Assembly: GCF_050303215.1 (NCBI RefSeq)
Contig: NZ_JBNLBH010000019.1
Coordinates: 1 to 64,000, forward strand
Length of the DNA: 64,000 nucleotides
DNA from: Haliangium sp.
GTDB taxonomy: Bacteria > Myxococcota_A > Polyangia > Haliangiales > Haliangiaceae
Reading direction: 5' to 3'
Of the stretch, positions 96 to 60,037 are shown one piece after another; position 1 is the stretch's first letter; each line of letters begins with the position of its first letter. The notes under the pieces are model-generated. The model worked only from the letters and a program-made list of their open reading frames with translations. It did not search any database and had not been told where the DNA came from. Both the position numbers and the translations under genes were made by a program.

Positions 96-1502
96 TCAGC
101 TACCCTGCTCGCCCTCGCATCGAATAGCCTGCTTCGTAACAATCTCATACGGGAACATCAGCCGTGAGACGTAGCGGGTATCCTTCAGCGCATTAATAAT
201 CTTGCTCTCACCATAAGCGTGAATAGGCCAGCTCTTGCCGTTACGTTCACAGATGTAGATAGACTCGTCCGGCTTTTCCTCCTCTCGCCAGTCATACAGC
301 TTGTAGCTGGTTCGCTCGGCCTCATCTACGGCGACGTAGAAGTCAACCAATGTGGCATCAACATGGGCGATGCGCTTACAGGTGAGATCACGAGCTTTGG
401 CTATCAGCTCTAATGACTGCTTGGGCTTAGCCGGTAACTGTATTGTCTTTGGTAGACGGCGCTCGTAGAGTCGCCGAGAAAGATCTGAAAGGATCGGGTC
501 CGGGTGCCCTCTCCATTCGTCAACGAGGACCCAGACGTGGAATTCGCCCAAGTGGGAATATGTCTCAAGGTCGCACTGTCCACCTGTGTCGAAAAATCGC
601 TTCAATGGATGACGTCGGTCTCGCGTTGAGAATACATCTTTGTCTCCATTGCTTGCCAGCATGACGGCACGACGAAGGACGGAGGTCAGAAGCACGCTCG
701 CAGCCCGCACGGTGTGATGGAAGTAGATGGCTCGATACATTTGATCCAAAGCGACCAAATATCCCTCGACGGTTTCCAACCCCTTGCGATCCACACCGAC
801 CAATTGTCCATCCACATGCCGCAGCATATCCAAAAGACGAGCTAAATCGTAAGTATGGCCGCGAAGTCCGCATGCCGCTGCATCGCGCAGCAGATAATCG
901 AGCCGATCTGCATCGAGCTGACTCGACACTAATTTGTGACTCCAATGTGGTTTCTTTACCTTCTTACTAATATACTCGGCGACGCGTTCGGGAAAGGTCT
1001 GATCGACATGGCCCAGAGTCTCGGCGACAACCGACTCTCTGATGATACGCAAGGTCATCGCTTCGTGAGCGAACTCGATCCCTAGAACATCGAGAGCCTC
1101 CTCGAGAGTATGCGAGAAGGGACCGTGTCCGATGTCGTGCAGCAGTCCTGCCGCACATGTCGCCAGCCGGGTCTCGTCATCGGGCTCTTCACCCATGTTG
1201 CGGCAGATGCGATCGTACATCTCGCCGGCCAGATAGGCCACACCCATCGAGTGACTGAAACGTGAGTGCTCGGCGCCATGGAACACTAAATTGGTCAACC
1301 CGTTCTGACGGATGTGCCGTAGCCTCTGGAAGACTGGGGTGTCGATAAGCCGCTGCATCACCCAGCCGAAGCGCTTGTCACCGAATGCTGGTGAAGGGAT
1401 GTGCCGTTCGTCTTCGACCCGCTCGTAGCGAAGCTGCAAGTGTACTGGGTCGCGGAATAGACGAGGTGCTTTCTCGAATGCCATCCCGGTTGCATCATAC
1501 AC
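96..1502 (-). CDS. HD-domain phosphohydrolase, dGTP triphosphohydrolase (Dgt)-like
   Basis: 468-aa ORF with HD motifs H..HSRFSHSMGV, LLHDIGHGPFSH and DADRLDYLLRD, typical of the dGTPase family. Local GC is about 50-55% against about 70% for the rest of the window. Start could be M at 1502 or 1484. Confidence 0.8.
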   Translation of the reverse strand: MYDATGMAFEKAPRLFRDPVHLQLRYERVEDERHIPSPAFGDKRFGWVMQRLIDTPVFQRLRHIRQNGLTNLVFHGAEHSRFSHSMGVAYLAGEMYDRICRNMGEEPDDETRLATCAAGLLHDIGHGPFSHTLEEALDVLGIEFAHEAMTLRIIRESVVAETLGHVDQTFPERVAEYISKKVKKPHWSHKLVSSQLDADRLDYLLRDAAACGLRGHTYDLARLLDMLRHVDGQLVGVDRKGLETVEGYLVALDQMYRAIYFHHTVRAASVLLTSVLRRAVMLASNGDKDVFSTRDRRHPLKRFFDTGGQCDLETYSHLGEFHVWVLVDEWRGHPDPILSDLSRRLYERRLPKTIQLPAKPKQSLELIAKARDLTCKRIAHVDATLVDFYVAVDEAERTSYKLYDWREEEKPDESIYICERNGKSWPIHAYGESKIINALKDTRYVSRLMFPYEIVTKQAIRCEGEQGS

Positions 1503-2543: not shown

Positions 2544-4577
2544 CTACGCCGACTCGCCCTGGTCCGGCGACGGCACCAGGCCAAGGATGCCTTGGATGTC
2601 GGCCGCCGGGCCCGACTTGGAGCCCAGGGGCAGACGGTCGAGCAAGCGCGCGGCCACCTCGGCCACGCTCTCGCCGCCGAGGATGGCCAGCGGCGACAGG
2701 TTCTTGGACAAAGCGCCGGCGAGCTGCTGCCCAGCCAGGCCCTTGAGGGTCGCGATGAGCTCGGGCTGCAGCGCCTCCATCTGCTCGCGAAAGGCCGCCG
2801 AGCGCGCGGCCAGGGCCTCCCGCGCCAACCCGGCCTCGCGGTCGGCGATCTCGAGCCGAGCCCGGCTGCGGATCGCGTCGGCCTCAGCCTCGTGCTCGGC
2901 CCGGCCGATCTTGTCCAGGCGGTCGCGCTCGATGATGGTCCCGATCCGCGCCAGCTCCACGGTGCGGCTCACGGCCTCGTGCTCGGCCGCCTTGGCCAGG
3001 GTCTCCATCTGGGCGCCGTAGATCTCTCGGTTGACCGACTCCTTGAGGTTCTCGTCGCCCAGTCGCAGCTCCTCCTGCCTGCGCGTGATCGCCGAGACGA
3101 TCGCCATGCGCTGGGCCTCCTGCAGCATGCGCTCGACGTCCTGGTCCAGGATGCGCACGTCGAGCACCTCGACGTCGTAGACCCACATCCCGTTCTCCTT
3201 GAAGTGCCGCCCCTCGCGCTCGCCGTCGTCGCCGCGCGCGCCCAGGATGGCGGTGCGCAAGATGTCAGTGCTGGTGCCGTGGAAGGTCTCGATCGAACTC
3301 GTCCGCGCGGCCGCGCGGATGATCGAACCGAGGTGGTCGCATAGCAGGCCGACATAGTCCTTGACGTTGAACCAGCGCTCGGAGTCGCCCACGAACGACA
3401 CTCGATACGACAGCAGGATCTCGAGCCCGACGTGGTCGGAGGTCTTGACCCGGACCAGGTCCGACACCTTGTTGCCCTGTACCTGCAAGAAGCAGGTGGG
3501 CAAGAGCTCCTCGTCGCTCTTCGGTCGCCCGGTCGATAAGGTCAGAACCTCGAGCTCCTCGTCGTAGTGCAGGATGCGGGTCTGGGGCCCGCTCACCACC
3601 TCGCGCTTGTTCTTGGCCGTGATCATCACCGCTGTGCTCGGGGGCACGTAGATCGACCACGCCCGGTTGGGGTCGCGGCTGTCGGTGTCGAGCCGGAACA
3701 GCACCGCCCGGCGCTCGTCGAGCCGACGCGTGACCAGTTCCTCGCGGGTGGGATCGACCAGGTAGTTCACCGGACCCTCGACGGTGGTGAGCTTGCCCGT
3801 GCCCAACTCGCGCGCGTAGATGGCCTCGTTTTCGGCCAGCGGGATCGGAGCCACCTCGCCCACGACGTCCAGGTTGTCGGAGGGGAAAAACATGCCCTCG
3901 CGGTCGCGCAGGAAGATGTCCTGCCCGGCCAGGTATCGGCCCTCGGGCACCTGCGCGGCGGGGCCGACCTCGAAGGGCGCGCGCACGCGCAGGTGCAGGC
4001 CCTTGTTGCGCTCCATACGCCAGGCCCGGCGCACGTAGCTGCCGTTGCGGTTGGGCACCACCTCCAGGCCGCTGGGCGGGATGTAGAAGCTCACGTCAGT
4101 GCCGCAGATGATGTGCTCGGTGCCGATCGGCTCGCCGTCGCCCATATCGTCGTACACACGGACGACGAGGTACTGGTCCAGGCGCAGCTCGTGGCCGTCG
4201 ATGACCTGGGCCCGCTGCCCGGGCCAGAGCGGGAACTCGGCCGGGCCGGGCACGACGACCTTGCGCCCGAAGCGGAGCGGGATGGCCGAGTTTGCGCCCT
4301 TGACCGGCTTGTCGTCGGGGTCCTGGGGCGGGTTCTCGAGGATGATGTACTGCGATGATGAGGCCGCGACGAACTTGTGTACCCCCAGCCCGGCCTCGTC
4401 GCCGCGCACGGGCACGAAGCGGCCGTCGCGCAGGATGATCATGCGCTCGGTGTTGGACAGGCTGATCTTGGTGGGGCCGACGTAGAGGACGATGTCTCCC
4501 TTGGTGAGGTCCTGCACGTAGGCGTACTCGTTGGGGGCAACCAGGATGTCGCGTTCGCGAATGTCTCGTTCTGCCAT
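2544..4577 (-). CDS. Major vault protein (MVP) homologue: vault repeats, shoulder domain and coiled-coil cap helix
   Basis: Matches human MVP from my recall of its sequence: [29 protein letters not shown] vs [39 protein letters not shown] vs [27 protein letters not shown] vs [55 protein letters not shown] vs [40 protein letters not shown]. N-terminal repeats have the Y.V.D...G..V.VGP pattern and the C-terminus is a long Ala/Glu/Arg coiled coil. Start taken at [12 protein letters not shown] (4577), inside the longer ORF 2544..4649. Confidence 0.85.
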   Translation of the reverse strand: [677 protein letters not shown]

Positions 4578-4722
4578 GGGCCTTGCTCTCCTTGTGGACT
4601 TGCTGCTCACCGGTCTCCAGGCCAAGAGCAAGCACCGTGCCGGCGGCAAGTGCCGGATTTGCCACGGCTACCAGCCCATGCGCGGCGCCGGACGTGTGTC
4701 TTGTTGGTGCACTTGCTCCGAA

Positions 4723-6014: not shown

Positions 6015-9000
6015 TCAGCGGCACTGTGTCAGCACGGCGTCGAGTTGGGCGGCGAGACGACTCTGGGGCCGACTCTCGATGTCGGCCTCGAGTAGCTCAG
6101 CGCGCGCGCGCGTCGCCAGCTTGCGGGCCTCGCTCAGGTCTGACTCGGACAGCCGGGCCGCACACAGCGCGCGGGCCAGGGCGAGGCGGGTGCGGGCCAG
6201 CGCCAGGGCCGGACCGGGCCGGGCCTCGCGGATCGTCATCGCCCGTCGCAGCGACACAGCGGCGACCTCGGGGTCGCCGAGCGCAAGGTGGACCCGCCCC
6301 AATGCGGTGAGGGTCGCCGCCAGGTCGGGGTGGTCCGCGCCGAGCACGCGCTCCTTCAGCGCAAGCGCGCGCGAGAGTTGGTCGAGCGCCGACGCGTGCT
6401 CGCCCTGGGCGGCCCACATCGCGCCTAGATCGGCGAGCACAGCCGCCGCACGCGCGCCTTCGCCTTCCTCGCGGCGCTCGTAGATCGACAACGCCCGCTG
6501 CAGCGCGGCCTCGGCCTGATCATAAGCGCCAGTGGCCACGAGCGTGCGACCCAGCCCGTGCAGGGCCTCGGCCACCGCGGGGTGATCGGGCGCGAGCAAC
6601 GCCTCGCGGACGGCGAGCGCCTCGCGGAACCGCTCCTCGGCGAGGTCGAGAGCGCCCCGGGCCAGGGCCACGGCCCCAAGGTGCCACACGGCCTCGGCGT
6701 GGCGCTCGTGGCGGCGCCCGAAGGTGGCCTCGCAGATCACCCGGGCGCGCTCCAACTCGTTCTCGGCGACGCCGAGCTGACCACGGGCCATGTGCAGCCG
6801 CCCCCGGCCCAATAGCACCTCGGCCAGGCGGGGATGATCCGCCGGGTAGGCGCGATCGGCGATCTGCCAGGCTTGGTCCAGGGCCTTCTCGGCGGCGTCG
6901 TGATCGCCAAGCATGAGCTGGGCCAGGCCGATGTCCAGCAGGTGCCGAGCCATGCCGGGGGCGTCGTCGCCGAGGTTGGCGCGCTCGATGGCGGCGGCCT
7001 GCTGGAAGCGGCCCAGGGCCTCCTGGAAGCGACTCTGCTCGGTGTGGATGCGGCCGATGCTGATCAGGGGCTCGACCAAGAACAGGTGCTCGGCGCCGCA
7101 CACGTCTTGGGTGGTCTCGATCAAGCGCTCTTGGGACTCCAAGGCCATGTCGTAGTCCGCCTGGGCGAAGTACAGCTCGCCCAGAAAGCTCATGTACTTG
7201 GACACCTGGGGGTGGTCGGCGCCGAGGGTCGCCGTGCCCAGGTCGACCGCCCGGCGCAGCATCGACTCGGCCTCGGCGTTCTCGCCCAGCCGCGCCAAGA
7301 GCATGCCGGCGTGGGCGAGCAAGTCGGCCTCCAAGGCGCCGTCGCCCCCCGCCCGCGAGATCGACGCCGCCGCCATGGGACGCATGCGCAGCGCCTCTTG
7401 ATAACGTCCCTGACCCGCGCCCACCAGCCACATGAGCTTGGTCCACAGCGCCGCCAGCAGGCGATCGTCACGGGCCTCGGCCGCCATGCCGACCGCCTCG
7501 TGGAACCTGATCTCGGCGCTGCTCAGGTTGCCCAGGGCGTGCTGTGTCTGGCCCGACAGATAGCGTGTGCGCGCCTGCAAAGGCGGGAAGTCGAGCTCAT
7601 CGGCGCGCTGTACCAGCCTCGCCAGCGACTCCGACACCGCCCGATACTGACCGATCTGGATCCGGGCCTCGACGTCGTCGACGTCCTCAGTGAGGGTCGC
7701 GATGGCCTGGCGCAGCTCGGGATCGCCCGGCATCGGGTAGGTGTCGCGCAGCGCCAGCTCATCGGTGCAGCCGCGCAGCCCCGGCAACTGTCGGACCGCG
7801 CCCAGGGCACGATCGACCACGGCGCCGTCGAGGCCGCCGTCGTCGCCGATCTCGCGCACGAACACGCCGGTGAGGGCGCGCAGGGTGCCCAAGCGGCGAT
7901 CGAGGCAGCTCATGCTCAGGTCGAGCATGGCCTCCGAGCGCTCGCCGCGGATGTGAGTGGCTTCGCAGGTGTCGACGCGGATGGCGACCCAATCGCGGCC
8001 GTAGGTCTCGATCTCACGCGCCACCTGCTCGAAGGCCTCGCTGGCGTGTGGGCGCCCGCTGGCCGCGAAGCCCGCAGCCACGGTGGCGGCCAGGTCGTCG
8101 TTCCAGACCGTGGCCAGGCGCTCCTCGCTGCCTTGGCACAAGGCCGCGCTGCGGGCACGCTCACCCGTAACCAGAAAGGCCGCGCCCACGACCACCATCA
8201 TCACGAGGGCGGCGATGCCGATGGCCGTGCCCATGCGCACCAGCCGCGCGCCCCGCTGCATGCCGTGCTCGAGGTCGGCCAGGAGGTGATTCATCGAGGG
8301 GTAGCGCTGCTCGGGTTCAGCCGACAGGCCACGGATCATCATGGTCACCAGCCAGGCCGGGGTCCGCGCCTGCGGCGGTGGTGGCTCGATCTGGCCCGAC
8401 GCCATCTGATAAGCAACCTCTTCGGGACGGGTGCCCGAAAATGGCCTATGCCCACACACGGCCTCGTACAAGGCCACGCAGAACGAGAACTGATCGGTGC
8501 GTGCGTCCGTGCTCCCGCCGCCGTACTGCTCCGGAGCCATGTACCCGGGGGTCCCCACCAGCGCGCCGTGAGCGGTCAAGGGGTTGTGGAGGACGCGCCG
8601 AGACGCGAGGTTCGACACCCCGGCTCGGGTGAGGGTGCCGGGCCTCTCCACGGCCGCCGGGTTGAACTGCGCCAACGGCGCGTGCGGATCCTCTCCGTGC
8701 GCGTCGTCGTCGACGGTGGTGTCGACACCGACCTCGGCGGCCGGCTCGGGCGCGGTCTCTACGCCGGCGCCCGCGACCTCCGCGTCCGGTGGCGAGTCCG
8801 AGCCGGGCAGCGACGAGTCGGCGGCTTGCTGCGCCGCTCGGGCCAGACCGAAATCGAGCACGCGCACACGCCCGTCAGCGCCCATCATGACGTTCTCGGG
8901 CTTGAAGTCGCGGTGGACCAGGCCGGCCGCGTGAGCAGCCGCCAGGCCCTGCCCCGCGGCCCAGAACGCGGCCAGGATGTCGCTCAGCGCCGGGGTCTCC

Positions 9001-10061
9001 TCGTCGAGCCAACGACGCAGAGTGACGCCCTCGACTAACTCCATAGCCACGAACACCTGCTCGCCCAAGCGCCCAGCGTCGTATACCGCGATGACGTTGG
9101 GGTGGGCCAACCGGGCCAAAGCCTGGGCCTCACGCAGGAGCCGGGCGCAGGCCTTGTCGACCGATCGTCCGGGGTTCACCCGCATCAGCTTGAGGGCCAC
9201 CTTGCGGTCCAACTCGGGGTCGTAGGCAGTGTAGACCACGCCCATGCCGCCGACGGCTAGGGCGCCCAGCACCACGTACCGCCCTACGCTCGTCCCCACC
9301 GGCAGATATTCGCCGTGACGCCCGGCCACGGCGGTCACCGTGGGGATTTCACCGGTCGCCTGGACCAGACTGAGCTCCGAACCGAGCCGATCCTCGACGT
9401 CGGGCAGCGACTCGACCGAGATCGACAGAGTCGAAGGTTCGGCCACCGCCGTCGCGCGGGTGCCGGGCTCCGCCGGCGACTCGAACGAGGTCACCACGTC
9501 GGCCAGGGACGGCAACGCCGCCGGCGGTGGCTGCCCGGGCCGCCCGCCTTCGAGCTCTTTGTCGTCCGATCGTACGACTCGATACGGACGCGGGCGCGCG
9601 AGCACCCCGGTGGGCGCGTCGATGTCGACGTCGTAGGTTTCGCTGGCGAGGCGATCGCGGGCGCGGAGGTTCCTCGCCCGTGGCTCTCCGTAGCGCCGGG
9701 TGGGCTCCTCGTGAGGAGAGACCGGGTTCCGGCGCACGGTCTCGTCTTCCTGGGTGACGTCCTCGTGGGTCGGGTCTTTTTGGGTGGCGGCTTCCCGCCG
9801 GAGCGCGTCCTCCCGGCGCGCGGCACGCGCGCGCGCACCGCTGGCGAGCTTGGCGTGCAGCGCGGCCCACGTCCGCTCGTCCGGCGCTGGTTGGTCCTCG
9901 ACTACCGTGTCGTCATCGAGGTCGGCGGCCGTAGAGGTGGCCCGTCTCGGCAACGAACGTTCGTCACCCTGGTCGGTCATGGCAAATACGGAGTCGTTTG
10001 AGCTTGGCAGCGACGCGAAGTGCGCGTCTCCCATTGTCTCACTCGGGAGATGAACTTGCAA
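6015..10061 (-). CDS. Ser/Thr protein kinase with long disordered N-terminus, one TM helix and a large C-terminal TPR region
   Basis: Kinase motifs GALAVGGMGVVYTAY, VALKLM, HRDFKPENVMM, DFGLARA, GTPGYMAPE. TM helix IGIAALVMMVVVGAAFLV followed by about 700 aa of TPR-like repeats. Start uncertain (M at 10061, 10034 or further in); it overlaps or abuts the stop of the upstream MscS gene. Confidence 0.8.
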   Translation of the reverse strand: MQVHLPSETMGDAHFASLPSSNDSVFAMTDQGDERSLPRRATSTAADLDDDTVVEDQPAPDERTWAALHAKLASGARARAARREDALRREAATQKDPTHEDVTQEDETVRRNPVSPHEEPTRRYGEPRARNLRARDRLASETYDVDIDAPTGVLARPRPYRVVRSDDKELEGGRPGQPPPAALPSLADVVTSFESPAEPGTRATAVAEPSTLSISVESLPDVEDRLGSELSLVQATGEIPTVTAVAGRHGEYLPVGTSVGRYVVLGALAVGGMGVVYTAYDPELDRKVALKLMRVNPGRSVDKACARLLREAQALARLAHPNVIAVYDAGRLGEQVFVAMELVEGVTLRRWLDEETPALSDILAAFWAAGQGLAAAHAAGLVHRDFKPENVMMGADGRVRVLDFGLARAAQQAADSSLPGSDSPPDAEVAGAGVETAPEPAAEVGVDTTVDDDAHGEDPHAPLAQFNPAAVERPGTLTRAGVSNLASRRVLHNPLTAHGALVGTPGYMAPEQYGGGSTDARTDQFSFCVALYEAVCGHRPFSGTRPEEVAYQMASGQIEPPPPQARTPAWLVTMMIRGLSAEPEQRYPSMNHLLADLEHGMQRGARLVRMGTAIGIAALVMMVVVGAAFLVTGERARSAALCQGSEERLATVWNDDLAATVAAGFAASGRPHASEAFEQVAREIETYGRDWVAIRVDTCEATHIRGERSEAMLDLSMSCLDRRLGTLRALTGVFVREIGDDGGLDGAVVDRALGAVRQLPGLRGCTDELALRDTYPMPGDPELRQAIATLTEDVDDVEARIQIGQYRAVSESLARLVQRADELDFPPLQARTRYLSGQTQHALGNLSSAEIRFHEAVGMAAEARDDRLLAALWTKLMWLVGAGQGRYQEALRMRPMAAASISRAGGDGALEADLLAHAGMLLARLGENAEAESMLRRAVDLGTATLGADHPQVSKYMSFLGELYFAQADYDMALESQERLIETTQDVCGAEHLFLVEPLISIGRIHTEQSRFQEALGRFQQAAAIERANLGDDAPGMARHLLDIGLAQLMLGDHDAAEKALDQAWQIADRAYPADHPRLAEVLLGRGRLHMARGQLGVAENELERARVICEATFGRRHERHAEAVWHLGAVALARGALDLAEERFREALAVREALLAPDHPAVAEALHGLGRTLVATGAYDQAEAALQRALSIYERREEGEGARAAAVLADLGAMWAAQGEHASALDQLSRALALKERVLGADHPDLAATLTALGRVHLALGDPEVAAVSLRRAMTIREARPGPALALARTRLALARALCAARLSESDLSEARKLATRARAELLEADIESRPQSRLAAQLDAVLTQCR

Positions 10062-11034
10062 CCGGCGCGGGCGGGTGCGCAGGTGCCTGGCGGCTGGCGT
10101 CGGTGCCGCGGTGAAGCACCGAGGGAGGGCGAATCCCCTGGTCGAGGTACGCCATTTTGACCCGCTCGGTTACATCCGACGCGAACAGCTTCTCATAGCG
10201 CACGTCGAGCACGTAAGCCTTCGCACGCAGCCGTGTCGCGAAGTAGGACGACTCGATGATATCGGTCACCAGCACTACGACTGGCTTTTCCAGGTAGACG
10301 AAGCGGCTGGTCCGAACCGCCTCGTATACGATGCGCTTGGCGGTGCGCAGGTCGCTGTCGATGGCGACGTAGAAGTCCATGACGATCTGCATGTCGAGCG
10401 CGCCGGCGTTGCCCGACACCACCGCTTCGGTGAGAAAACGATTGTTCGGGATGGTCACCAGCGAGTCGTCGAGGGTGACCAGACGCACGGAGCGCAGCCC
10501 GATGGCGAGGATCTCGCCGTAGTGGCCGGCGACGGTGACACGGTCACCGACTTGAAAGGGCCGATCGAAGAGGATGATGATGCCGGCCAGCACCGACGAC
10601 GCCAGGTCCTTGAGCGCGAAGCCGATGGCCACCGCCAGCGCGACCAGGACCTGGCCCTCGAGTCGAATCGACGCGCTCACCACCAGGATGCTGGTGAGCA
10701 CGTAGATGATGAACCGAAGCACGGTGCTGATCTGCTGCAGCATCAGGCGCCGGTCCGAGAACCGCTTGCTCAGGGAGTCGGTCAGACCAGTGATGAAGCG
10801 GAGTACCAGCAGCGCGATGGCGATGACGATCAGCGACACCACCAGCCCGGCCGGGCTGACCTGCTCGATGAGCCGGGCCAGGTCGATGCCGGCCAACTCC
10901 TGGGCCCGGGCCGGGGCCGGCCAGGCCCATGCGAAGATCCCGACGAGGACCCCCACGAGGGAGATTGCGAGCGAGCCGCCGGCGCGGCGTCGGCGGCCGG
11001 CGAACACGAGGAGACGCGGTTGGGGCTGGGTCAT
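10039..11034 (-). CDS. Small-conductance mechanosensitive channel, MscS family
   Basis: Three N-terminal TM helices, then the MscS beta-domain signature (LFDRPFQVGDRVTVAGHYGEILAIGLRSVRLVTLDDSLVTIPN) and a C-terminal domain. Its ATG overlaps the stop of the upstream gene as ATGA at 11031..11034. Confidence 0.88.
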   Translation of the reverse strand: MTQPQPRLLVFAGRRRRAGGSLAISLVGVLVGIFAWAWPAPARAQELAGIDLARLIEQVSPAGLVVSLIVIAIALLVLRFITGLTDSLSKRFSDRRLMLQQISTVLRFIIYVLTSILVVSASIRLEGQVLVALAVAIGFALKDLASSVLAGIIILFDRPFQVGDRVTVAGHYGEILAIGLRSVRLVTLDDSLVTIPNNRFLTEAVVSGNAGALDMQIVMDFYVAIDSDLRTAKRIVYEAVRTSRFVYLEKPVVVLVTDIIESSYFATRLRAKAYVLDVRYEKLFASDVTERVKMAYLDQGIRPPSVLHRGTDASRQAPAHPPAPVASSSPE

Positions 11035-14000
11035 GAGTACAAGAAGTGCCGGCGCTTGAGGTAGCGGATGATGGGCTGCTGCCAGTGGGTGGCGAGCCGG
11101 AAGCGGCCGCTGCCGCCGCCCTCACGCAGGTAGCCGTGCTCGCAGCAGTAATCGAGCGCGAACCGGCAGAAGTCGGCGGGCAGGTTGGACACGGCGGTCA
11201 GCTCGTCGGCGTCGAGGTTCTCGTGCTCGACCACGGCGGTGAGCACGAAGGCCATGTCGTCCGAGAGTTCTTCCAGCTCCTCGATGCGAGGAGCCGCGAA
11301 CAGGTGCACCCGCACCCGCGGCTTGTCGGGGTCGGGCACCAATGAGCGCAGCCAGTAGTGAGTGGCCACCCGGGGGTTGCCGTCGGTGAAGTCCCACAAC
11401 AACCGAAAGTAGCCCTGGGACGTGCGGATGACCTGGGCTCGGGTCTCGACTCCTTCGATGCGGGTGACCAGGAGGTCAGTGAAGTTGGGCCGGTAGCCGG
11501 CCCGGCGCATGCGGGTGAGCAGCAGGCGCCGGAGCTGCTCGTCGCTCCAGCGCCCGATCTCGACCACCCGACGGAAGTAGGCCACCCCGCCGGCGATGTT
11601 ACGCAGGTAGTCCCAGGCGGCGTCGTTGAAGGTGAGGACCCAGAAGACCTGCTCGCAACTCTGGTTGACGATGCGGGTGAAGGCCTCCCAGGCGGCGAAG
11701 CCTCCCACCTGGCGCAAGAAGAAGTTGTGGCACCCGTCGAGGGCGATGATCGTCGGGGGCTGGGCGCAGATGGCCTCGATCAGCTCGTCTTCGTCGGTGA
11801 ATACGCGCGGGCCGGCCACCTCGTCGCCGGCGAGCGCCGGGGACAGCCCCAACAGCCCGCCCAAGGCCGCCACCAGCGCGCGCGGCTGGGTGTACTTGGT
11901 GGTGATCTCGGCGCTCAGCACCGGCGCCTCCAGCTCGCCCTCCAGCATGGCCAGGAGCGTGCTCTTGCCCATGCCGGTGGCGCCGACCACGACCACCGAG
12001 CCCTGCACCCGATCCTTCTGCCAGGCCTTGTAGGAGGCTTTGATCTCGGACAGGGTCTCGAGCTTGACCGGGCGGTCGGCCTGGCCGATGGCATTGGTGG
12101 GGAACTGGGCCACCAGGGCCTCGGGCAGGGGCAGGGGCTGTTCGAGCACACGACCCCGCTCGGCCGCCTGCTTCTCGACCCGGCGCCGAAACAGAAACGC
12201 CAGCAGCCGCTTGGTGGCGTCCAGGCCGGCGACCTCGTCGCGCACGAACAGGCCCAGGCGGTGCGCCAGCACCACGACCAGGGCCAGCGCGCTCACCACG
12301 GCCCCATACAGGCGCCGGCCGTGGCGCGCGGTGAGTCGGGCCAGCGCACCTTCCCGCGCCAGCCGGCCGGCGACCACGTCGGCGATGGCGGCGCGCCACA
12401 CATGCAGGCAGATCGCCAGGAGCAAGACCCCGCCCCACCAGGCGTAGCGGGTGGCCAGGGTCCATAGCACGCCGCGGTCGAGGCCGTACTCGACGAGCGA
12501 AAGCAAGATGAAGACTACCGCTAGGTAGCCGGAGAGGATCCGCCAGGCCCGGGCCAGGAGCGGCCACGGGACCTGGACCGGGGCCGACTCGGGAGCCGGC
12601 GGGGGCTGGTCGGACGCCTCCCCAGGGTGCTCCTCGGCGAAGGCGCTGTCCTGCGCCTGCAGCTCGGCGTACTCGCGCGCGCGCTCATGGGCGCGTTGCT
12701 CGAAGTACCGGGACAGGCGGTCGATGAAGTGCATGAGGGCCCGGAACAGGGCCACCCAGAACACCAGTCGATAGCCGACCTCAGCCTCGGGCGGGGCCTG
12801 GATGCCGGCGTCGCCGTGGTCCTGTCCAAGCTGCCAGTACACGACTCGGGCCGCGCCGAGCCACAGCAGCGGGGGGCCGAAGGCGCGGGCGAAGTCGCAC
12901 AGCCGGGCCAGCGTGAGGGTCCACGGCCCCACTGGGAGCGTGGTCCCGATGAACTCGACAAGGCGCTGCATCCAGCCGTCCCAGCCGCGCAGGCAGAAGC
13001 GCAAGAGCAAGACGATCACGACGATGTCGAACAGCCACCACAGCAGCTCGCCGATGACGCTCAGGTCGCGCAGCAGACCGAGCCCGGCGCGGGCGGCGTC
13101 GAGCCTGCGGCTGGCCCAGTAGCCGAGCGCGATCACGACCTGGGCCAGCTCGCCGCGCAGCTCGTCGATGGTCGCGGACGCCGACAGCGGGGCCCGTACC
13201 GCCGCGTGCTCGGGCGCGAGCTGGGCCCGGGTGTCGATGCGCAGCGCGTACAGCTTGCCCAGGTGGAGGTAGCGCAGCGCCGCCCAGGCTCGCCACAGCT
13301 CCCGCACCTCCTCGCGCTTGCGCGCGGCCTCCCGCTCCAGGCGGTCGCGCAGGTGCTCGAGTTCGGTCACGGCGGCCTGGTACTCGCCGGGCAGCTCGCG
13401 CACCTCCTCGCTCAGCACCGGCGGGGGCGCCGGCACCGGCGGCGCCGGGCGAGGCCAGCGGGCGGCGGCGAGTAGGTCCAACAAGCGCGCTGGGACGAGG
13501 GCGAAGCGGGCCTCGAGCAGGGCCTGTTGGACGTCTTGGTAGCGCGTGGCGGCGGGCTCGATCTTGGCCAACTCGGCCTCCTGCGCGGACAGACGGTCAT
13601 GCTCGCGCCCGATCTCACGCTCGCGGGCGAGCACGACGACTCGTTCGAAGCGGGCGAGCTGCTCGGCGACCTCGTGCATCGCGGCCTCCTCCTTGCGCAG
13701 CGAGGCCTCGGCCAGCGACGCCGCCCGCTCCTGCTCTTCGAGGGCGCTCTGGCGGGCCGCGGCGGCCTCGCGCCGGGCTCGCTCGGCCTGCTGATCGCGC
13801 TCGGCGATCGCGCGTTCGGCGCTGTCCTGGGCCTCCGCCTCGCGACGCGCGGGCTGGCTCGCGACCAAGTAGACCCGAATGGCGTCGAGCAAGATCACGC
13901 GGGCCTCGGCCAACTCGCGCTCGCGCCGAACCCGTTCGAGCTGGGCATCGACCGGCGGCGGCGGTACCGGGTCGGCGTCGATGCTCGCCACGCCGGCGTC

Positions 14001-14582
14001 CGGGGTCGCTCCGGGGCGCCGGCGCCGGCGCCCGAGGTCCGGTGCTGGGCCCGCGTCCACAGGCGCTGGTACAGACCACTGGACCACCACCGCCGCCTCC
14101 ACCGCACGTGCGTCTGCGGCCGCGACCGCGAGCCCCTGACGGCCCCGATCGAGCACCGGCAGGAAGCTGTCGACCGCGTCGGCGCTGCCGAGATCGAGCG
14201 GGGGCGGCTCGTCACCGAGCCCGACCGCGAGCAGATCGGCCACCACCTGCTCGAGCCCAAGGCCACCCGGCAGCAGCGCCGGCACCGCCGGGAGAGTTGG
14301 GTCCAGGCCCTGCACGGCCTCGAGCTGGCGCTTGACGACCGCGAGCTTGCCGTCGAGCAGCGCGACCTGATGACGCCGGAAGGCCTCCAGATCGTCACCG
14401 CTGGGGTCGAGGCCTGGCTCGGGCTCGGCCTCACCGGCCGCGGTCCCGGTCTCGCCGGCCGTGGTCACTTCATCGGGGCCGGCGTCGGCGGGCGCTGACG
14501 CCGGCGCGGCCCCAACCGGGGCGACCGGCACGAGCACCAGCACGAGGACGAGAACCAGGACCGCAGGCACGGACGCGAGCAT
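11031..14582 (-). CDS. Large envelope protein: signal peptide, Ala/Glu/Arg coiled-coil region (about 500 aa), multi-TM block, C-terminal P-loop NTPase domain
   Basis: N-terminal signal peptide LVLVLVLVLVPVAPVGA. Long coiled coil between about aa 200 and 480. At least 5 hydrophobic helices between about aa 540 and 800. Walker A VVVVGATGMGKSTLLAML and Walker B-like PTIIALDGCHNFF near the C-terminus. First gene of an overlapping three-gene unit. Confidence 0.7.
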   Translation of the reverse strand: MLASVPAVLVLVLVLVLVPVAPVGAAPASAPADAGPDEVTTAGETGTAAGEAEPEPGLDPSGDDLEAFRRHQVALLDGKLAVVKRQLEAVQGLDPTLPAVPALLPGGLGLEQVVADLLAVGLGDEPPPLDLGSADAVDSFLPVLDRGRQGLAVAAADARAVEAAVVVQWSVPAPVDAGPAPDLGRRRRRPGATPDAGVASIDADPVPPPPVDAQLERVRRERELAEARVILLDAIRVYLVASQPARREAEAQDSAERAIAERDQQAERARREAAAARQSALEEQERAASLAEASLRKEEAAMHEVAEQLARFERVVVLAREREIGREHDRLSAQEAELAKIEPAATRYQDVQQALLEARFALVPARLLDLLAAARWPRPAPPVPAPPPVLSEEVRELPGEYQAAVTELEHLRDRLEREAARKREEVRELWRAWAALRYLHLGKLYALRIDTRAQLAPEHAAVRAPLSASATIDELRGELAQVVIALGYWASRRLDAARAGLGLLRDLSVIGELLWWLFDIVVIVLLLRFCLRGWDGWMQRLVEFIGTTLPVGPWTLTLARLCDFARAFGPPLLWLGAARVVYWQLGQDHGDAGIQAPPEAEVGYRLVFWVALFRALMHFIDRLSRYFEQRAHERAREYAELQAQDSAFAEEHPGEASDQPPPAPESAPVQVPWPLLARAWRILSGYLAVVFILLSLVEYGLDRGVLWTLATRYAWWGGVLLLAICLHVWRAAIADVVAGRLAREGALARLTARHGRRLYGAVVSALALVVVLAHRLGLFVRDEVAGLDATKRLLAFLFRRRVEKQAAERGRVLEQPLPLPEALVAQFPTNAIGQADRPVKLETLSEIKASYKAWQKDRVQGSVVVVGATGMGKSTLLAMLEGELEAPVLSAEITTKYTQPRALVAALGGLLGLSPALAGDEVAGPRVFTDEDELIEAICAQPPTIIALDGCHNFFLRQVGGFAAWEAFTRIVNQSCEQVFWVLTFNDAAWDYLRNIAGGVAYFRRVVEIGRWSDEQLRRLLLTRMRRAGYRPNFTDLLVTRIEGVETRAQVIRTSQGYFRLLWDFTDGNPRVATHYWLRSLVPDPDKPRVRVHLFAAPRIEELEELSDDMAFVLTAVVEHENLDADELTAVSNLPADFCRFALDYCCEHGYLREGGGSGRFRLATHWQQPIIRYLKRRHFLYS

Positions 14583-14660: not shown

Positions 14661-15809
14661 TCATTGAAAGGGCAGCACGCGCTCCATTGGGACGTAAAAG
14701 CGGGCCTCCCACGAGGCCTCGTTGTGGGCCCCGCTGGGCTCGAACCAGTGGAAAAGGTCAGCGCCGTGCACGTAGCCCTTGCTCTCGAGGGTGTCGCGCA
14801 TGTCGGCGGTGTTGGTGGCGCCGTCGTTCTGGCCGCCGGCGTCGATGTACAGCACCACCGGCACCTTGGCGCCGGTGTGGCCGGCCACCGTGTCGATGAG
14901 GAAGCGGTCGTTCCACCAGAAACTGCTCGACATGCACACCGCGGTGCCGAACACCTGCGGGCGCGTCCACGCGGCCCAGAAGCTGATCAGGCCGCCCAGC
15001 GACGAGCCGCCGATGAGGGTGTTCGCGGGCCCGGTGAGGACTCGGTAGTTGGCCTCGATGAAGGGCTTGAGCTCGAACTGCAAGAAGTCGAGATAGCTCT
15101 CGCCATTGCCGCCGCCGTAGTCGGGATCGGGCACGGGGGTGTACTCGGAGATGCGGTCGGCGTCGTTGTCCACCGCGACCACGATGACCTCGCGCATGCG
15201 ACCCTGGGCGATCAGGCTGTCGATGGTGTCGTCGACCTCCCAGGCCACGCCGCCGAAGGCCTCGCTGTCGTGGAACAGGTTCTGGCCGTCGTGCATGTAC
15301 AGCACCGGGTACTGTTTGGCCGCGTTCTCGGTGTAGCTCGGCGGCAGGTAGATGGTGATGTCACGGCTGTCCTGCATGTTCTGGGAAAAAAAGCCCGAGA
15401 TGGTGTGCAGGCTGCCCTGGGCAGGCCCAAAGAAGGGATACACGTGGACCACGCTGTCGCCGCTCGGGACCACGTAGTTGGCGCCCACGGACCACTGGCT
15501 GTCGTTGAACAGGGGCTTGAACTCGAACCCGCCGGACGAGGCCGGGGTGGTCAGCACCCAGTCGTTGCCCGCGGTCCAGGTGGCGCCGCTGCCCTGGCTC
15601 CAGCTCAGCCCGGCGCCGCTGCCGCGCACACTGATGAAGTTGCCAAAGCCGGTGTCGTAGTGGACATGGATCTCGGCCGCCTGGGCGGTGCCGGCGGCCG
15701 AGCACAGCAGCGCGGCCCACAGGGCGACCGCGGCGGCGGGGACGGAGACGATCGGGCGGCGGCCCGGCGCGGGCCGCGACGAAGACGAGGCGAGGGGTCG
15801 ATAGTGCAT
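14661..15809 (-). CDS. Secreted esterase (putative esterase / esterase D family) with N-terminal carbohydrate-binding-like beta-sandwich domain
   Basis: Signal peptide after MHYRPLASSS. An E[FY]K-type CBM-like N-domain (GATWTAGNDWVLTT...GGFEFKPLFNDSQWS). Esterase core with PVLYMHDGQN, GGSSLGG (nucleophile Ser) and a C-terminal His. ORF start trimmed from 16097 to the M at 15809. Confidence 0.8.
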   Translation of the reverse strand: MHYRPLASSSSRPAPGRRPIVSVPAAAVALWAALLCSAAGTAQAAEIHVHYDTGFGNFISVRGSGAGLSWSQGSGATWTAGNDWVLTTPASSGGFEFKPLFNDSQWSVGANYVVPSGDSVVHVYPFFGPAQGSLHTISGFFSQNMQDSRDITIYLPPSYTENAAKQYPVLYMHDGQNLFHDSEAFGGVAWEVDDTIDSLIAQGRMREVIVVAVDNDADRISEYTPVPDPDYGGGNGESYLDFLQFELKPFIEANYRVLTGPANTLIGGSSLGGLISFWAAWTRPQVFGTAVCMSSSFWWNDRFLIDTVAGHTGAKVPVVLYIDAGGQNDGATNTADMRDTLESKGYVHGADLFHWFEPSGAHNEASWEARFYVPMERVLPFQ

Positions 15810-15903
15810 TGGGTTCCTCTGACGTGACGGTGACGAAGATGGAGCGCGCCCGGCCCGTGGCCGAGCTGGGACACCTGAGCGGATCCCGCGATGGGCGCGG
15901 CGC

Positions 15904-17886
<1,983 letters not shown>

Positions 17887-18169
17887 GAGCCACGTTTAGC
17901 ACGAGCGCCCAAGGGCGCGGAAGGGGCGCATCGGCGGCGCCGCCGGGGCAACCAGCGCTGGCGGCGGCAGGCGCTCGCGGGGCGACGCAGTGGTGGCGCC
18001 GACTCCGGCACGAGCGAGCGGGCCGTCCATCGATCCCGGCTACCGGCGCCGACCGTGTCGCGGCGGGCCGTCCCCTGTCGGCGCGGCAATAGGAGAAAGA
18101 TCGTCACTTCTGGTCGTATTTCCGGATTGGGCTCTTGGAACCCGCCCCATGCATCAGGATAATGGCGCG

Positions 18170-21826
<3,657 letters not shown>

Positions 21827-23925: not shown

Positions 23926-25968
<2,043 letters not shown>

Positions 25969-34400: not shown

Positions 34401-35644
34401 AACACGGCCGCACAGAAGCGCGCGCTGGTCGCGGCCAGGAGCCCACCCAGCTCGCCGATTTCGCGCCCCACCAAGCCGAGATCGACCTCGGGTTCGAACA
34501 GTACCACTCCGGCCCACCGACGCTGATTCGACGACGATATCGGCGCCGGGTCTTCGGTGCGGGCCCGGCGCGAAGCCCCCGGGCTCGAGTTGGGACGCTC
34601 GGACCATGCTGTCGCCGCGGCCTCCGCGGTCGAGGCCGCGGCGGCGCTCGCCCGCGTCGAGCGGGAGGCTGCGTCCAGGGCCGGGAGCAGCGCCGCACGC
34701 AGCTCGGCGACCGAGCCGAAGCGGCGATCGGGACGCTTGGCCAGGCACCGCTGCAGCACGTCGAGCACAGCCTCAGATCGCACCAGACCGCCGTGCAACG
34801 AGGGCGGACGGCGGTACATGTGGGCCATGCGCACGCTCGACGCGTCCCCCACGAACGGCGGCTCGCCCGCGATCATCTCGTAGCCCATGATCCCCAGCGA
34901 ATAGATGTCGGCGCGGGAGTCCACCCGTCCCAGCCCTTCACACTGCTCGGGGGACATGTACGCCGGGGTCCCCAGGATCATGCCCGGCACGGTCTGCACC
35001 GGCGTCCCCGGCGCCACGACCAACGACTTGGCCAGGCCGAAATCGATGAGCTTGGCCACCGCCGGCGTCTCCACCGGCTCGGGGCCGGGCGCCGCCAACC
35101 CGCGGCTCACGAAGATGTTCTGCGGCGACAGATCGCGGTGGGCGAAGCCGCACCCATGAGCGGCCTCGACGGCGTCGAGGATCGGACCCAGCAACGCCGC
35201 CATGGTCGCCGCGGCCAACGGCGCACCCAGAACCCGATCCAGCGTCGGCATCGTCAGCCGCTCGATCACCAAGTACGGGCGTCCATCGTCGAGTACGCCC
35301 CGGCCGTACAGAGCAGGCACGTAGGGTGGTCCGATGGCGCTCAAGGCCTGGGCCTCGGTCTCCAGGCGCACACGCGCCGTAGGGTCCTCGCGGTGCACCA
35401 CCTTGATGGCCACGGGCAGCCCATCGGCCTCGCGTGTGGCCGCGAGCACGGTCGCGAAACCTCCCTGTCCAAGGCGACCATCGATCCGATACCCAGCGAC
35501 CGATAGGGTCACAGCGACGTCGACGTGATTGGCTTCACCCTGCATGTCTACCCGACTAGGTCTACCCAACTGGCCGAACGCGCTCCCGAAACCAGACACG
35601 TGGCCAGCGCCGCCATTATCTCTACGATTCCCGTTTTGGGTCAA
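31496..35644 (-). CDS. Ser/Thr kinase - AAA/NACHT-like ATPase - TPR multidomain regulator
   Basis: Kinase motifs LGQGGFATV, VAIKVV, HRDLSPQNIFV, DFGLAK. Walker A GLGKSHLAATLS. A long TPR/SLR-like C-terminal region. Confidence 0.85.
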   Translation of the reverse strand: MTQNGNRRDNGGAGHVSGFGSAFGQLGRPSRVDMQGEANHVDVAVTLSVAGYRIDGRLGQGGFATVLAATREADGLPVAIKVVHREDPTARVRLETEAQALSAIGPPYVPALYGRGVLDDGRPYLVIERLTMPTLDRVLGAPLAAATMAALLGPILDAVEAAHGCGFAHRDLSPQNIFVSRGLAAPGPEPVETPAVAKLIDFGLAKSLVVAPGTPVQTVPGMILGTPAYMSPEQCEGLGRVDSRADIYSLGIMGYEMIAGEPPFVGDASSVRMAHMYRRPPSLHGGLVRSEAVLDVLQRCLAKRPDRRFGSVAELRAALLPALDAASRSTRASAAAASTAEAAATAWSERPNSSPGASRRARTEDPAPISSSNQRRWAGVVLFEPEVDLGLVGREIGELGGLLAATSARFCAAVFYGTEAQPPVAAASAAAQALIERGVAVRVIVDRDQVRSMRSRRGVERVVGVNTGKAAVLLRGTLPAAVLLSRQAAEAVAPAAVVALPGRDDLVRVRAGSGEVVSMVGLGADGPLLGRDQVLAELVDSATECARERRPGLCTILAETGLGKSHLAATLSRTLSERDPKLCVLTLHARPRVGDQGARILGTLVASILREASEQVTPGVEVLLARLERVLGATSWPALALVCGWLSADEPALAKLRAAPSVLRRTAAQAAGELLCRLAARAPVCLVLDDGHMSDGITLDALEYATRAEVAAPLWVAVFAQPKLTQTRQHWGRRAASRREVTLGALADEDAAALCRRLLHPARDVPTQVVARLVAQTQGNPLLLTELARGIQRQGLIRRHDRGKAWFLAADELGELLDLPGIAWLVERELGALSPALAAHARLLSLLGASFTLAEVEGVLHELERDGLGDEFPLDAEVGCGLLREQGLLVDRGQRAFWFRHALFREQIVRLIPAPLTLSIHAAAGRYYEHASGLGEARRRPLLAYHAAQAGLRERAIGLYVELADTMRDHHDYVEAAELYSRALELIAASGVDPVRPRAAGIPAAVAQPCLRALRGRGLMHYRQSRFDDAVADLCAAAELAESLGVVHVRAAILLDQATALDWRRDFAASRACVDEARAIAPAGDSLLEARLALALGRAHHRAEDDATAVVHLEEAARRGGALGELGYEPRVIALLLLGYIYPSLHEIERAQAVFETCIALCEEHGDRLHLAAALSNRCELWNWQNQPERSARDMRRAESIGREIGQLSVEYVTARNLAELYYYTGDLVAVEAPLGRAGELEPITGDKPMMPLLSARLGVFAGDPERAREGLARVRAAEARARAEHNHSGQLGEAEEVIVQAVELAVEGAGEAAWHAVLVRAEAALGEVDSIDVMDMMAWTLHRRGEANAARQMWRQAHARSLAAGHVIEARLRRRVAAGDD

Positions 35645-38856: not shown

Positions 38857-40461
38857 ATGAGCGATCGCAACCACAACCCTCCACAGCATGACCATCGCCC
38901 ACCCGGGGCCGACCTCGCCCCCGGCGACAGCGGCGCCCCCAGCAAACGCGCGTCCGAGCTGGTGGCCGCGCCCGGCCAGACAGACGAGACCGACTCACAA
39001 ATGATCGTGGTCACCCAGTCGATGCGCTTCATCAAGGGCGACGAGGAGTTCGACTACGGAGCGCAGCTCGCTGCGGGCACCATGATCGGAGGCTGTCGCA
39101 TCGTGGACACGCTCGGCCGCGGTGGGTGCGGGACCGTGTACGAAGCCGTGCGCGAAGACAGCGGCCGGCGGGTGGCGGTGAAGGTCCTCCACTCCTATCT
39201 CGCCGCGTCGCCGCAGCACGTGCAGCGCTTCCTGCGCGAGAGCGAGGCCATGCAGCGCATCCGTCACCGCGGCGTGGTCGAGATTCTGGGCACCGGTGCC
39301 CTCGACGATGGGCGCCCGTACATGATCATGGAGCTGGTCATCGGGATCAGCCTGAGCGAGTGGATCGACCGCCGCGGGCGGCTGTCCCCGACCGAAGCGC
39401 TGGAGCTCATGGAGCTCATCTGCGATCCCCTCACCTGCGCCCATGAGGCCGGCATCGTCCACCGCGACATCAAGAGCAGCAACGTCATGCTGCGCGATCC
39501 CCCCGGCGCCCCCGACGCCTCCGGGGCAGGGCCGACGGTGAAGCTGCTCGACTTCGGGCTGGCCAAGCTGATCGACCCCGACGGCCCCAGCGGCATCAAC
39601 ACCAGCGTGGGGCTGCTGCTCGGCTCGCCCCACACCATGGCGCCCGAGCAAGTATTGGGACAACCGGTCGACGTGCGCACCGACGTCTACGCCCTGGGCG
39701 TGCTGTTGTTCCGCATGCTCACTGGCCGGTTCCCGTTCATGAACAAAAACTCGATCCTGCTCGCTCAGATGCAGGTCCACGCCGCCCCGCCCCCGCCCAG
39801 CAAGCTGGCCCCGGTCGGCCCCGGCCTCGACGCCGTGGTCGCGCGGGCCATGGCCAAGGCGCCGGCGGAGCGCTACGACAGCGTCGCCGACTTCCTCGCC
39901 GGGCTGCGGCGCGCGGTCCACCCCAACCCAGCCGACGCCACCAAGGACACCACCGGCTCGGCCTTCGCGCTGTACGTGGACGCCCGCGTGGCCGAAGACG
40001 AAGCCCTCGACGACGACCTGTTCATGGAGCTCATGGCCGTGCTCGACACCACCGAGGCCATCTTCGACGGCGCGGGCGTGCAAACCGCGCTGCAGACCGG
40101 CCAGACCCTGGTCGGGGTCGTGCCCATCACTGACACCGCGGTGGTGCACCGCTCCGCCCTGATCGCGCTCGCGCGCGAGCTGGAGCTCCAGCTCGCCTCC
40201 TGCCTGGACCCGCACAGCCGCCTGCACGTCAACATCTGCCTGCACCGGGCCGAGGCCACCCTGCGCACGGTCGACGGCGCCAGACAAGTGATCGGCGGGC
40301 CGGTGCTCGAACTCGGCGACTGGGCCCCGCTGGAGCCGTATAGCGGCATCATGGCCACGCCGGCGGCGATGTCCACGTCCCCTGCGCTCGAGACCATCGG
40401 CGCCGAGCACGAACTCGACCCGCTGGACGAAAGCCCGCGCTACCTGCGCATCGACAGCTAG
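38857..40461 (+). CDS. Ser/Thr protein kinase with uncharacterised C-terminal domain
   Basis: Kinase motifs [35 protein letters not shown]. Start 8 bp after the RCC1-gene stop with RBS aggtgg, so likely co-transcribed. Confidence 0.82.

Positions 40462-58954: not shown

Positions 58955-60037
<1,083 letters not shown>

Follow-up and report, generated by a model that had tools for sequence, protein, structure and literature searches.

A conserved gene pair of Myxococcota encodes a predicted membrane-bound AAA+ ATPase and an MscS-family channel subunit

In canonical MscS (YggB) and in the bCNG channels, the latter being an example of how MscS cores can come under nucleotide-type control, regulation resides in cis, within the one polypeptide. 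MscS-type channels serve as the textbook example of direct gating by membrane lipids, for which no helper proteins are needed (PMC13591265). MscK contains a signal peptide, a periplasmic domain of ~470 residues that is predicted to form two helical bundles, and 11 transmembrane (TM) helices, the last three of which are the MscS core. Gating of MscK and MscM is under the control of their periplasmic ring and extra TM helices, and the cage of MscM is closed by a cytoplasmic extension of a TM helix (PMC13591265). No separate obligatory partner subunit is described for any MscS-family channel in the literature searched. Here we analyze a 64,000-nt window of Haliangium sp. (contig NZ_JBNLBH010000019.1, positions 1–64,000; assembly GCF_050303215.1; G+C ~70%), in which a gene for a predicted membrane-bound AAA+ ATPase (gene 1) overlaps the gene for an MscS-family channel subunit (gene 2). 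The two together have the overall layout of E. coli MscK (KefA) and MscM (YjeP) (PDB 7UW5/7UX1 and 11SO/11SQ), with the channel core placed on a gene of its own.

A first-pass annotation, made from the sequence alone, had described genes 1 and 2 and a following kinase gene (gene 3) as a translationally coupled triad on the minus strand. All three open reading frames were found where it had placed them, and the overlap of the first two could be read directly:

11031–14582, minus strand: gene 1, 1183 residues, from the open reading frame and its translation
10039–11034, minus strand: gene 2, MscS-family channel subunit, 331 residues
11031–11034, minus strand: ATGA stop/start overlap of genes 1 and 2

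In the sequence ...TAC TCA TGA CCC..., the ATG of gene 2 (11034–11032) lies over the TGA of gene 1 (11033–11031), giving an overlap of 4 nt; the gene 2 stop is the TGA at 10041–10039. The gene 1 product is 100% identical to an NCBI entry named 'hypothetical protein [Haliangium sp.]'.

The pairing is conserved throughout the relatives of gene 1. A k-mer search with full-length gene 1 returned only three distant relatives, as alanine-rich low-complexity words swamped the candidates, and in all three the MscS gene starts at or within the ATPase stop codon. A wider, exhaustive HMMER search with a profile of the TM and ATPase regions yielded 3,718 representatives (one per 50%-identity cluster) at E<1e-3, of which 1,432 scored at E<1e-30. 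Most of the best 150 representatives are ~1,000–1,300 residues long and cover nearly the full profile, and the shorter ones look like fragments. Named members carry no annotation beyond 'hypothetical protein', 'AAA family ATPase' or 'ATP-binding protein' and all belong to the Myxococcota (Haliangium, Haliangiales, Kofleriaceae, Polyangiaceae, Byssovorax, Polyangiales, and the cultured Pendulispora brunnea and P. rubella). Scans of genomes and metagenomes gathered 82 loci, which were counted as informative if at least ~480 bp of downstream sequence was present. In 79 of the 79 informative loci the next gene downstream, on the same strand, is an MscS homologue with 41–72% identity to gene 2; the remaining three of the 82, which lack one, stop at a contig edge. 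The pair is also present in Pendulispora brunnea, at around 7.709–7.713 Mb of CP089982.1, in the two closest relatives (60–63% identity) and in three very distant members, bringing the total to 85 of 85.

The junction between the two genes is tight as well. The MscS start lies within 25 nt of the ATPase stop in 75 of the 80 junctions measured, and 45 of these 80 are overlaps, by 4 nt in 33 cases and by 1 nt in 12. Pairwise identities among the ATPases follow those among their MscS partners (r = 0.88, Mantel p = 0.001), with the channel being the more conserved partner (52% versus 34%). No third gene family was found to recur in the flanks of the related loci. Judged from these gene arrangements, genes 1 and 2 form a two-gene module that is complete in itself and translationally coupled. 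That the two products are physical and stoichiometric partners is the most economical reading of the strict adjacency, fixed order, start/stop coupling and parallel divergence of the genes. The first-pass annotation did not recognize the arrangement as described, and full-text literature searches likewise turned up no account of an MscS channel that has a membrane AAA+ protein as its partner; the components are of known kinds, and the obligatory pairing is new.

The AlphaFold2 model of the gene 1 product (pLDDT 77.9), together with hydropathy, conservation and motif analyses, gives a linear order of signal peptide, ~450 residues of periplasmic helical bundles, six hydrophobic helices, and an ORC/Cdc6-like AAA+ domain with a winged helix:

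14514–14582, minus strand: signal-peptide-like N-terminus, residues 1–23, the strongest hydrophobic segment in gene 1 and in the family average
13074–14405, minus strand: periplasmic alpha-helical (coiled-coil/helical-bundle) domain, residues ~60–503, from the AlphaFold2 secondary structure
12225–13070, minus strand: membrane region, residues ~505–786, from hydropathy and the K/R profile over 238 family members and from AlphaFold2 helices
12156–12221, minus strand: basic amphipathic juxtamembrane helix TKRLLAFLFRRRVEK, residues 788–809, from translation and conservation
11343–12047, minus strand: AAA+ NTPase core and lid, residues ~846–1080, from Pfam AAA_22/AAA_16, Foldseek and motifs
11961–11984, minus strand: Walker A motif GATGMGKS, from translation
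11733–11750, minus strand: Walker B motif IIALDG, from translation
11034–11342, minus strand: C-terminal winged-helix-like domain, residues ~1081–1183, from the AlphaFold2 helix/strand pattern

Relatives of gene 1 begin with canonical Sec-type leaders, and the leader of the gene 1 product is probably cleaved. The periplasmic domain is built from two helical blocks (residues 62–169 and 211–503) connected by a disordered Arg/Pro-rich linker in the model. No Pfam family covers it, and a PDB sequence search gave no significant match for gene 1. The domain is homologous between clades A and B of the family over its full length (hhalign E = 6e-89), as is the membrane region, and both are therefore real functional domains. 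The membrane region contains six conserved hydrophobic helices (~510–524, 570–584, 600–622, 684–697, 712–726 and 762–774), the last of which is flanked on both sides by Lys/Arg-rich segments. Since an even number of spans would place the ATPase outside the cell, five of the helices probably span the membrane and one, predicted to be 762–774, would be a non-spanning helix embedded in the membrane or in the partner. The juxtamembrane helix TKRLLAFLFRRRVEK joins the membrane region to the ATPase and is highly conserved; K791, R792, F798, R799, R800, V802 and E803 are invariant in clade B, and R792 and R800 are near-invariant family-wide.

The C-terminal 340 residues adopt, in the model, the fold of an AAA+ core, lid and winged helix that is found in Orc1/Cdc6, the SSO1545-type archaeal ATPases, TnsC/TniB and STAND proteins. 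Foldseek searches with this part retrieved Orc/Cdc6, SSO1545, RuvB, TnsC and Apaf-1/NLR structures with E down to 1e-6, and the alignments to Orc/Cdc6 proteins extend over 360–460 columns. Orc/Cdc6 proteins bear a C-terminal winged helix. The sole Pfam match of gene 1 itself is AAA_22, at threshold (27.3 bits, cut-off 27); in Pfam searches of 19 family members at E<=10, 18 matched AAA_22, the best at 7e-14. These searches gave no match above threshold to a STAND family (NACHT, NB-ARC or nSTAND), and sub-threshold matches were to nSTAND5 (seven of the 19 members, best 7e-4) and to NACHT/NB-ARC (0.03–0.08). The protein stops after the winged helix, at a conserved RRH(F/L)L tail, with no C-terminal repeat domain in the model. 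The possibility of a KAP-type NTPase was dismissed, since in the AlphaFold2 model the TM helices do not interrupt the P-loop domain and Pfam gives no KAP match.

Gene 1 shares with the ATPases of the Orc1/Cdc6–SSO1545–TnsC/TniB–STAND group a Walker A motif, a Walker B motif without the catalytic Glu, and a GNPR sensor-2-like motif; R1024 and R1060 are invariant as well. The Walker A lysine (K873) shows no variation within clades A, B and C as assigned, and the 31 unassigned sequences have K in 17 cases and otherwise R, A or V. The Walker B Asp (D949) is retained in clades A and B; the residue after it is D, N or G, and the lack of a catalytic Glu, a trait also of switch-type STAND and initiator NTPases, suggests slow or no ATP hydrolysis. 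By fold and motifs, the gene 1 ATPase is of the initiator/loader/STAND kind, within the ORC/Cdc6 or AAA_22 class of AAA+ proteins. ATPases of this kind are nucleotide-dependent switches and oligomerization modules, not motors. In clade C (proteins P0003, P0004, P0025 and P0034; loci L002 and L004, for example), substitutions are frequent both at the Ser/Thr of Walker A and at the Asp of Walker B: Walker A reads GDRGDGK and then R, G, S or D, not S/T, and the Walker B Asp is often changed to E, R or Q. The MscS pairing is nonetheless kept, so the core role of the large subunit would be structural or that of a regulatory switch rather than that of a motor. The MscS partners of clade C ATPases have no signal-peptide-like leader. 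The Orc1/Cdc6, SSO1545-type, TnsC/TniB and STAND proteins are soluble and work on DNA or in cell-death signalling; none of them has a periplasmic domain and a multi-TM region attached or an ion channel as its partner.

Gene 2 supplies the MscS domain, as the first-pass annotation had proposed. It matches the MscS beta-domain PF00924 at 1.3e-19 (cut-off 20.2 bits) and contains a signal-peptide-like leader, followed by the three TM helices and the beta and alpha-beta cytoplasmic domains of a normal-looking MscS. BLASTP against E. coli MscS gave 25% identity over 253 residues from TM1 to the C-terminal domain (E = 5e-15), with gene 2 residues 63–304 aligned to EcMscS 30–269, and 39 MscS-family sequences of the PDB are matched at E<=1e-3. 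Sequence comparison thus describes gene 2 as an ordinary-looking MscS-family member. Its best matches are to MscK, both in NCBIfam (the MscK channel core, PRK11281 positions 827–1036) and among PDB sequences (MscK 7uw5 at 1.2e-18, versus ~1e-13 for MscS). Among 54 partner channels, the best E. coli paralogue is MscK for 25, MscM for 17 and MscS for 12. An RFxxRR motif is present in the TM1–TM2 loop of gene 2 (residues 91–96, ~10747–10764), with F92 and R96 found in >90% of the partners, and such conservation is unusual for an otherwise variable part of MscS proteins. This loop could be a contact site for the large subunit, on which the helices at 684–786 or the helix at 788–809 are the candidate counterparts; the TM1–TM2 paddle is a second candidate surface on the MscS side.

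Whether gene 1 is related to MscK was addressed by sequence, profile and structure comparison. The first-pass annotation had seen in gene 1 the N-terminal half of an MscK/KefA-type channel that ends in a cytoplasmic P-loop NTPase. The layout is borne out: the signal peptide, the two-block periplasmic helices of ~450–470 residues and the additional TM helices are shared with MscK and MscM, as are the 3-TM core and cytoplasmic cage once gene 2 is included. Gene 1 resembles MscK in its signal peptide and two-bundle periplasmic domain by architecture only, as modeled by AlphaFold2, and homology is unproven. Differences from MscK and MscM are the use of two polypeptides, the 5–6 hydrophobic helices of gene 1 in place of the eight extra TM helices of MscK, the ~340-residue AAA+/winged-helix module, and the absence of significant sequence or profile similarity in the N-terminal half. 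Gene 1 matched no NCBIfam family; no MscK-type family was present among its family's Pfam matches (19 members, E<=10), the 25 most-matched of 56 families being all P-loop; BLASTP against MscK was not significant; and hhalign of the gene 1 family against MscK gave a probability of 1%. A 238-sequence profile of the N-terminal half, aligned by hhalign with MscK and MscM, reached a probability of 2% (E = 0.02, not significant) against an MscK-side profile that is shallow, as a plasmid search contributed nothing beyond copies from E. coli and Klebsiella and a frameshifted one from Halomonas. Its sole match is co-linear and falls on the helix just before TM1 in both proteins. Foldseek with the N-terminal half placed the two MscK structures of E. 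coli at ranks 1 and 2 among 350,542 chains, again without significance (E = 0.12 and 0.14, 532–547 columns, TM-score ~0.1). The architectural parallel between gene 1 and MscK is real and comes with a weak hint of common origin; we consider true homology possible, at somewhat under an even chance.

The reading that we favor, and to which we give about even credence, is that the pair encodes a heteromeric MscS-family channel with a nucleotide-switch sensor subunit. Gene 2 would form the pore through its 3-TM MscS core, presumably as a heptamer, and gene 1 would be a non-pore sensor or regulator subunit that surrounds or docks onto it. The large subunit would thus supply in trans what MscK and MscM carry in cis, namely a ~450-residue periplasmic helical domain and extra membrane helices, and would add to them a cytoplasmic ORC/Cdc6- or STAND-like AAA+ switch with a winged helix, which no described MscS relative possesses in the literature searched. 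The periplasmic domain may report the state of the envelope. Nucleotide binding, perhaps with slow hydrolysis, would determine which oligomeric or conformational state the large subunit adopts, and this state would in turn govern the channel's gating threshold, open probability or assembly. The stoichiometry of such a complex, the direction of control and any effect on gating are likewise proposals.

Several points weigh against this reading. The complex of the two products is one that we infer, and MscS-type channels gate without accessory proteins (2026 review, PMC13591265). The partner MscS proteins lean only slightly towards MscK and MscM (42 of 54; mean bits 54.5, 51.5 and 50.1 for MscK, MscM and MscS), and the 54 partners are conserved like ordinary MscS, TM3 and the beta domain most and TM1 and TM2 less, so that their conservation profile displays no obvious extra interface. 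The topology of gene 1 is a further difficulty, in that six hydrophobic helices all spanning the membrane would put the ATPase outside the cell. A bolder version holds that the pair is a split MscK, whose sensor half became a separate protein and acquired the AAA+ switch. It would then be the first MscS-family channel with an obligatory accessory subunit, gated by envelope mechanics and nucleotide state together, that is, an ATP-licensed mechanosensitive channel. We regard this version as doubtful.

Gene 1 and its family would be the first candidate for an accessory or regulatory subunit in the MscS superfamily. The pair would also provide a natural experiment on the periplasmic ring and extra TM helices of MscK and MscM, possibly borne here on a separate chain. 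For >1,400 clusters of 'hypothetical protein' and 'AAA family ATPase' entries, it supplies a context that is linked to function. The pair is carried by cultured Pendulispora strains with complete genomes, and E. coli strains devoid of MS channels are available for electrophysiology.

The large protein might instead act outside the working channel, as a membrane-anchored AAA+ assembly or quality-control factor that inserts, oligomerizes or localizes MscS, perhaps to a particular site of the envelope, much as ExeA/GspA does for the secretin. ExeA/GspA and the loader/initiator ATPases, which assemble other complexes, belong to the AAA_22 class too, and tight translational coupling would fit stoichiometric co-production. 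ExeA/GspA of type II secretion is a close parallel, being an AAA_22 ATPase tethered to the inner membrane, linked across it to a periplasmic domain and provided with a dedicated adjacent partner. ExeA, however, has an N-terminal ATPase and a single TM helix, whereas gene 1 has the reverse order and several membrane helices; gene 1 also matches no peptidoglycan-binding family in Pfam, which counts against an assembly role, and its partner is an MscS channel rather than ExeB/secretin. The conserved 450-residue periplasmic domain and the multi-TM region exceed what assembly would seem to need, the persistence of the pairing in clade C despite degraded Walker A and B motifs is hard to square with an energy-requiring process, and ordinary MscS proteins assemble unaided (PMC13591265). 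These considerations make an assembly factor unlikely. We think it improbable, too, that the pair is a conflict or stress-kill module, in which a STAND-like NTPase, upon sensing envelope damage or infection, would oligomerize and dissipate the membrane potential by opening the MscS pore, in the way of abortive infection. An NTPase sensor with a membrane pore follows a common logic of defence systems, the weak nSTAND matches in Pfam and the Foldseek matches to Apaf-1/NLR resistosomes point the same way, and the flanking genes differ between loci. Yet PADLOC (PADLOC-DB 2.0) gave no family for genes 1 and 2, with the kinase matching generic kinase models only, and both genes are co-inherited in parallel across deep clades of which all named members come from one phylum. 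The annotated flanks hold for the most part ordinary chromosomal genes, and no mobile-element genes were noted among them; the domain for sensing is periplasmic, and a conserved, ordinary-looking MscS would be the effector.

Signalling could also run in reverse, with MscS sensing tension and the AAA+/winged-helix part of the large protein serving as an output that changes state or binds DNA or another target in response to channel conformation; the large protein would then be a signalling ATPase tethered to the membrane and not a regulator of the channel. Conservation of the winged helix and of the basic RRH(F/L)L tail is high, Orc/Cdc6 winged helices are known as a family to bind DNA, and the channel is the more conserved partner. 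In STAND and AAA+ proteins, however, a winged helix usually serves intramolecular regulation, and the size of the periplasmic domain points to sensing by the large subunit itself, so we give reverse signalling little chance of being correct. Very improbable in our view is the triad of the first-pass annotation, in which kinase, channel and ATPase would be one system and phosphorylation would couple mechanosensing to signalling. All three genes share a strand, a plausible kinase start follows the MscS stop by <=4 nt, no terminator-like site intervenes, and co-transcription is likely in this genome. But a kinase adjoins the pair in none of the 85 related loci, which include relatives at 49–63% identity and, among these, the closest at 60–63%, and kinase genes are dense in the window (at least six in 64 kb). 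Adjacency of a kinase is therefore what the base rate would lead one to expect. The annotation was to count as refuted if the N-terminus of gene 1 had no relation to MscK-type proteins and the three genes were not syntenic in any other genome. By this rule it stands unrefuted, because the synteny of genes 1 and 2 turned out to be overwhelming; that of gene 3 failed to appear. Gene 3 is thus a lineage-specific downstream neighbour outside the conserved module, and the favored heteromeric channel would comprise the products of genes 1 and 2.

The kinase gene and the other kinase domains of the window, at least five in number and located by tblastn, are as follows:

6015–10061 (from TTG 10061) or 6015–10034 (from ATG 10034), minus strand: gene 3, membrane Ser/Thr kinase
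~25162–25779: Ser/Thr kinase domain
~34709–34993: Ser/Thr kinase domain
~39265–39921: Ser/Thr kinase domain
~47830–48156: Ser/Thr kinase domain
~59189–59794: Ser/Thr kinase domain

Gene 3 matches Pkinase (2.9e-35), TPR_12 (2.9e-56) and TPR_10 (5e-37) in Pfam, with one hydrophobic segment between the kinase and TPR domains, and by these matches is a Hanks-type membrane Ser/Thr kinase with a large C-terminal TPR domain. The kinase start had been placed within or abutting the MscS stop, correctly: a start at TTG 10061 gives a 23-nt overlap with gene 2, and one at ATG 10034, preceded by GAGTGAG, leaves a 4-nt spacer after the gene 2 stop; ATG 9980 is a third candidate. No terminator-like site was seen between the three genes in a promoter/terminator scan that was rated uninformative overall. 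Gene 3 is probably co-transcribed with the pair in this Haliangium genome, and genes 1–3 form an apparent transcription unit there. It is bordered downstream of gene 3 by a convergent tryptophan 2,3-dioxygenase gene and upstream of gene 1, after a 78-nt gap, by an esterase gene.

The esterase open reading frame (14661–16097, minus strand) matches PF00756 over residues 238–425, leaves ~237 N-terminal residues unmatched and overlaps an aconitase-family open reading frame (15904–17886) by ~190 nt. Its true start is probably further downstream, given the unmatched N-terminus and the overlap. Beyond it, 17990–21826 on the plus strand encodes a 1278-residue UvrD/REP-type helicase with a ~560-residue N-terminal extension that has no Pfam match. 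At the other end of the window, positions 1–1000 have a G+C content of 53%, against ~70% elsewhere, and overlap a gene for an HD-domain protein (96–1502, minus strand); this stretch may be foreign or otherwise atypical DNA. A 701-residue open reading frame (2544–4649, minus strand) matches the shoulder domain of the eukaryotic major vault protein (PF11978, 8e-29) and a vault repeat (PF17795), and represents a bacterial MVP-like protein.

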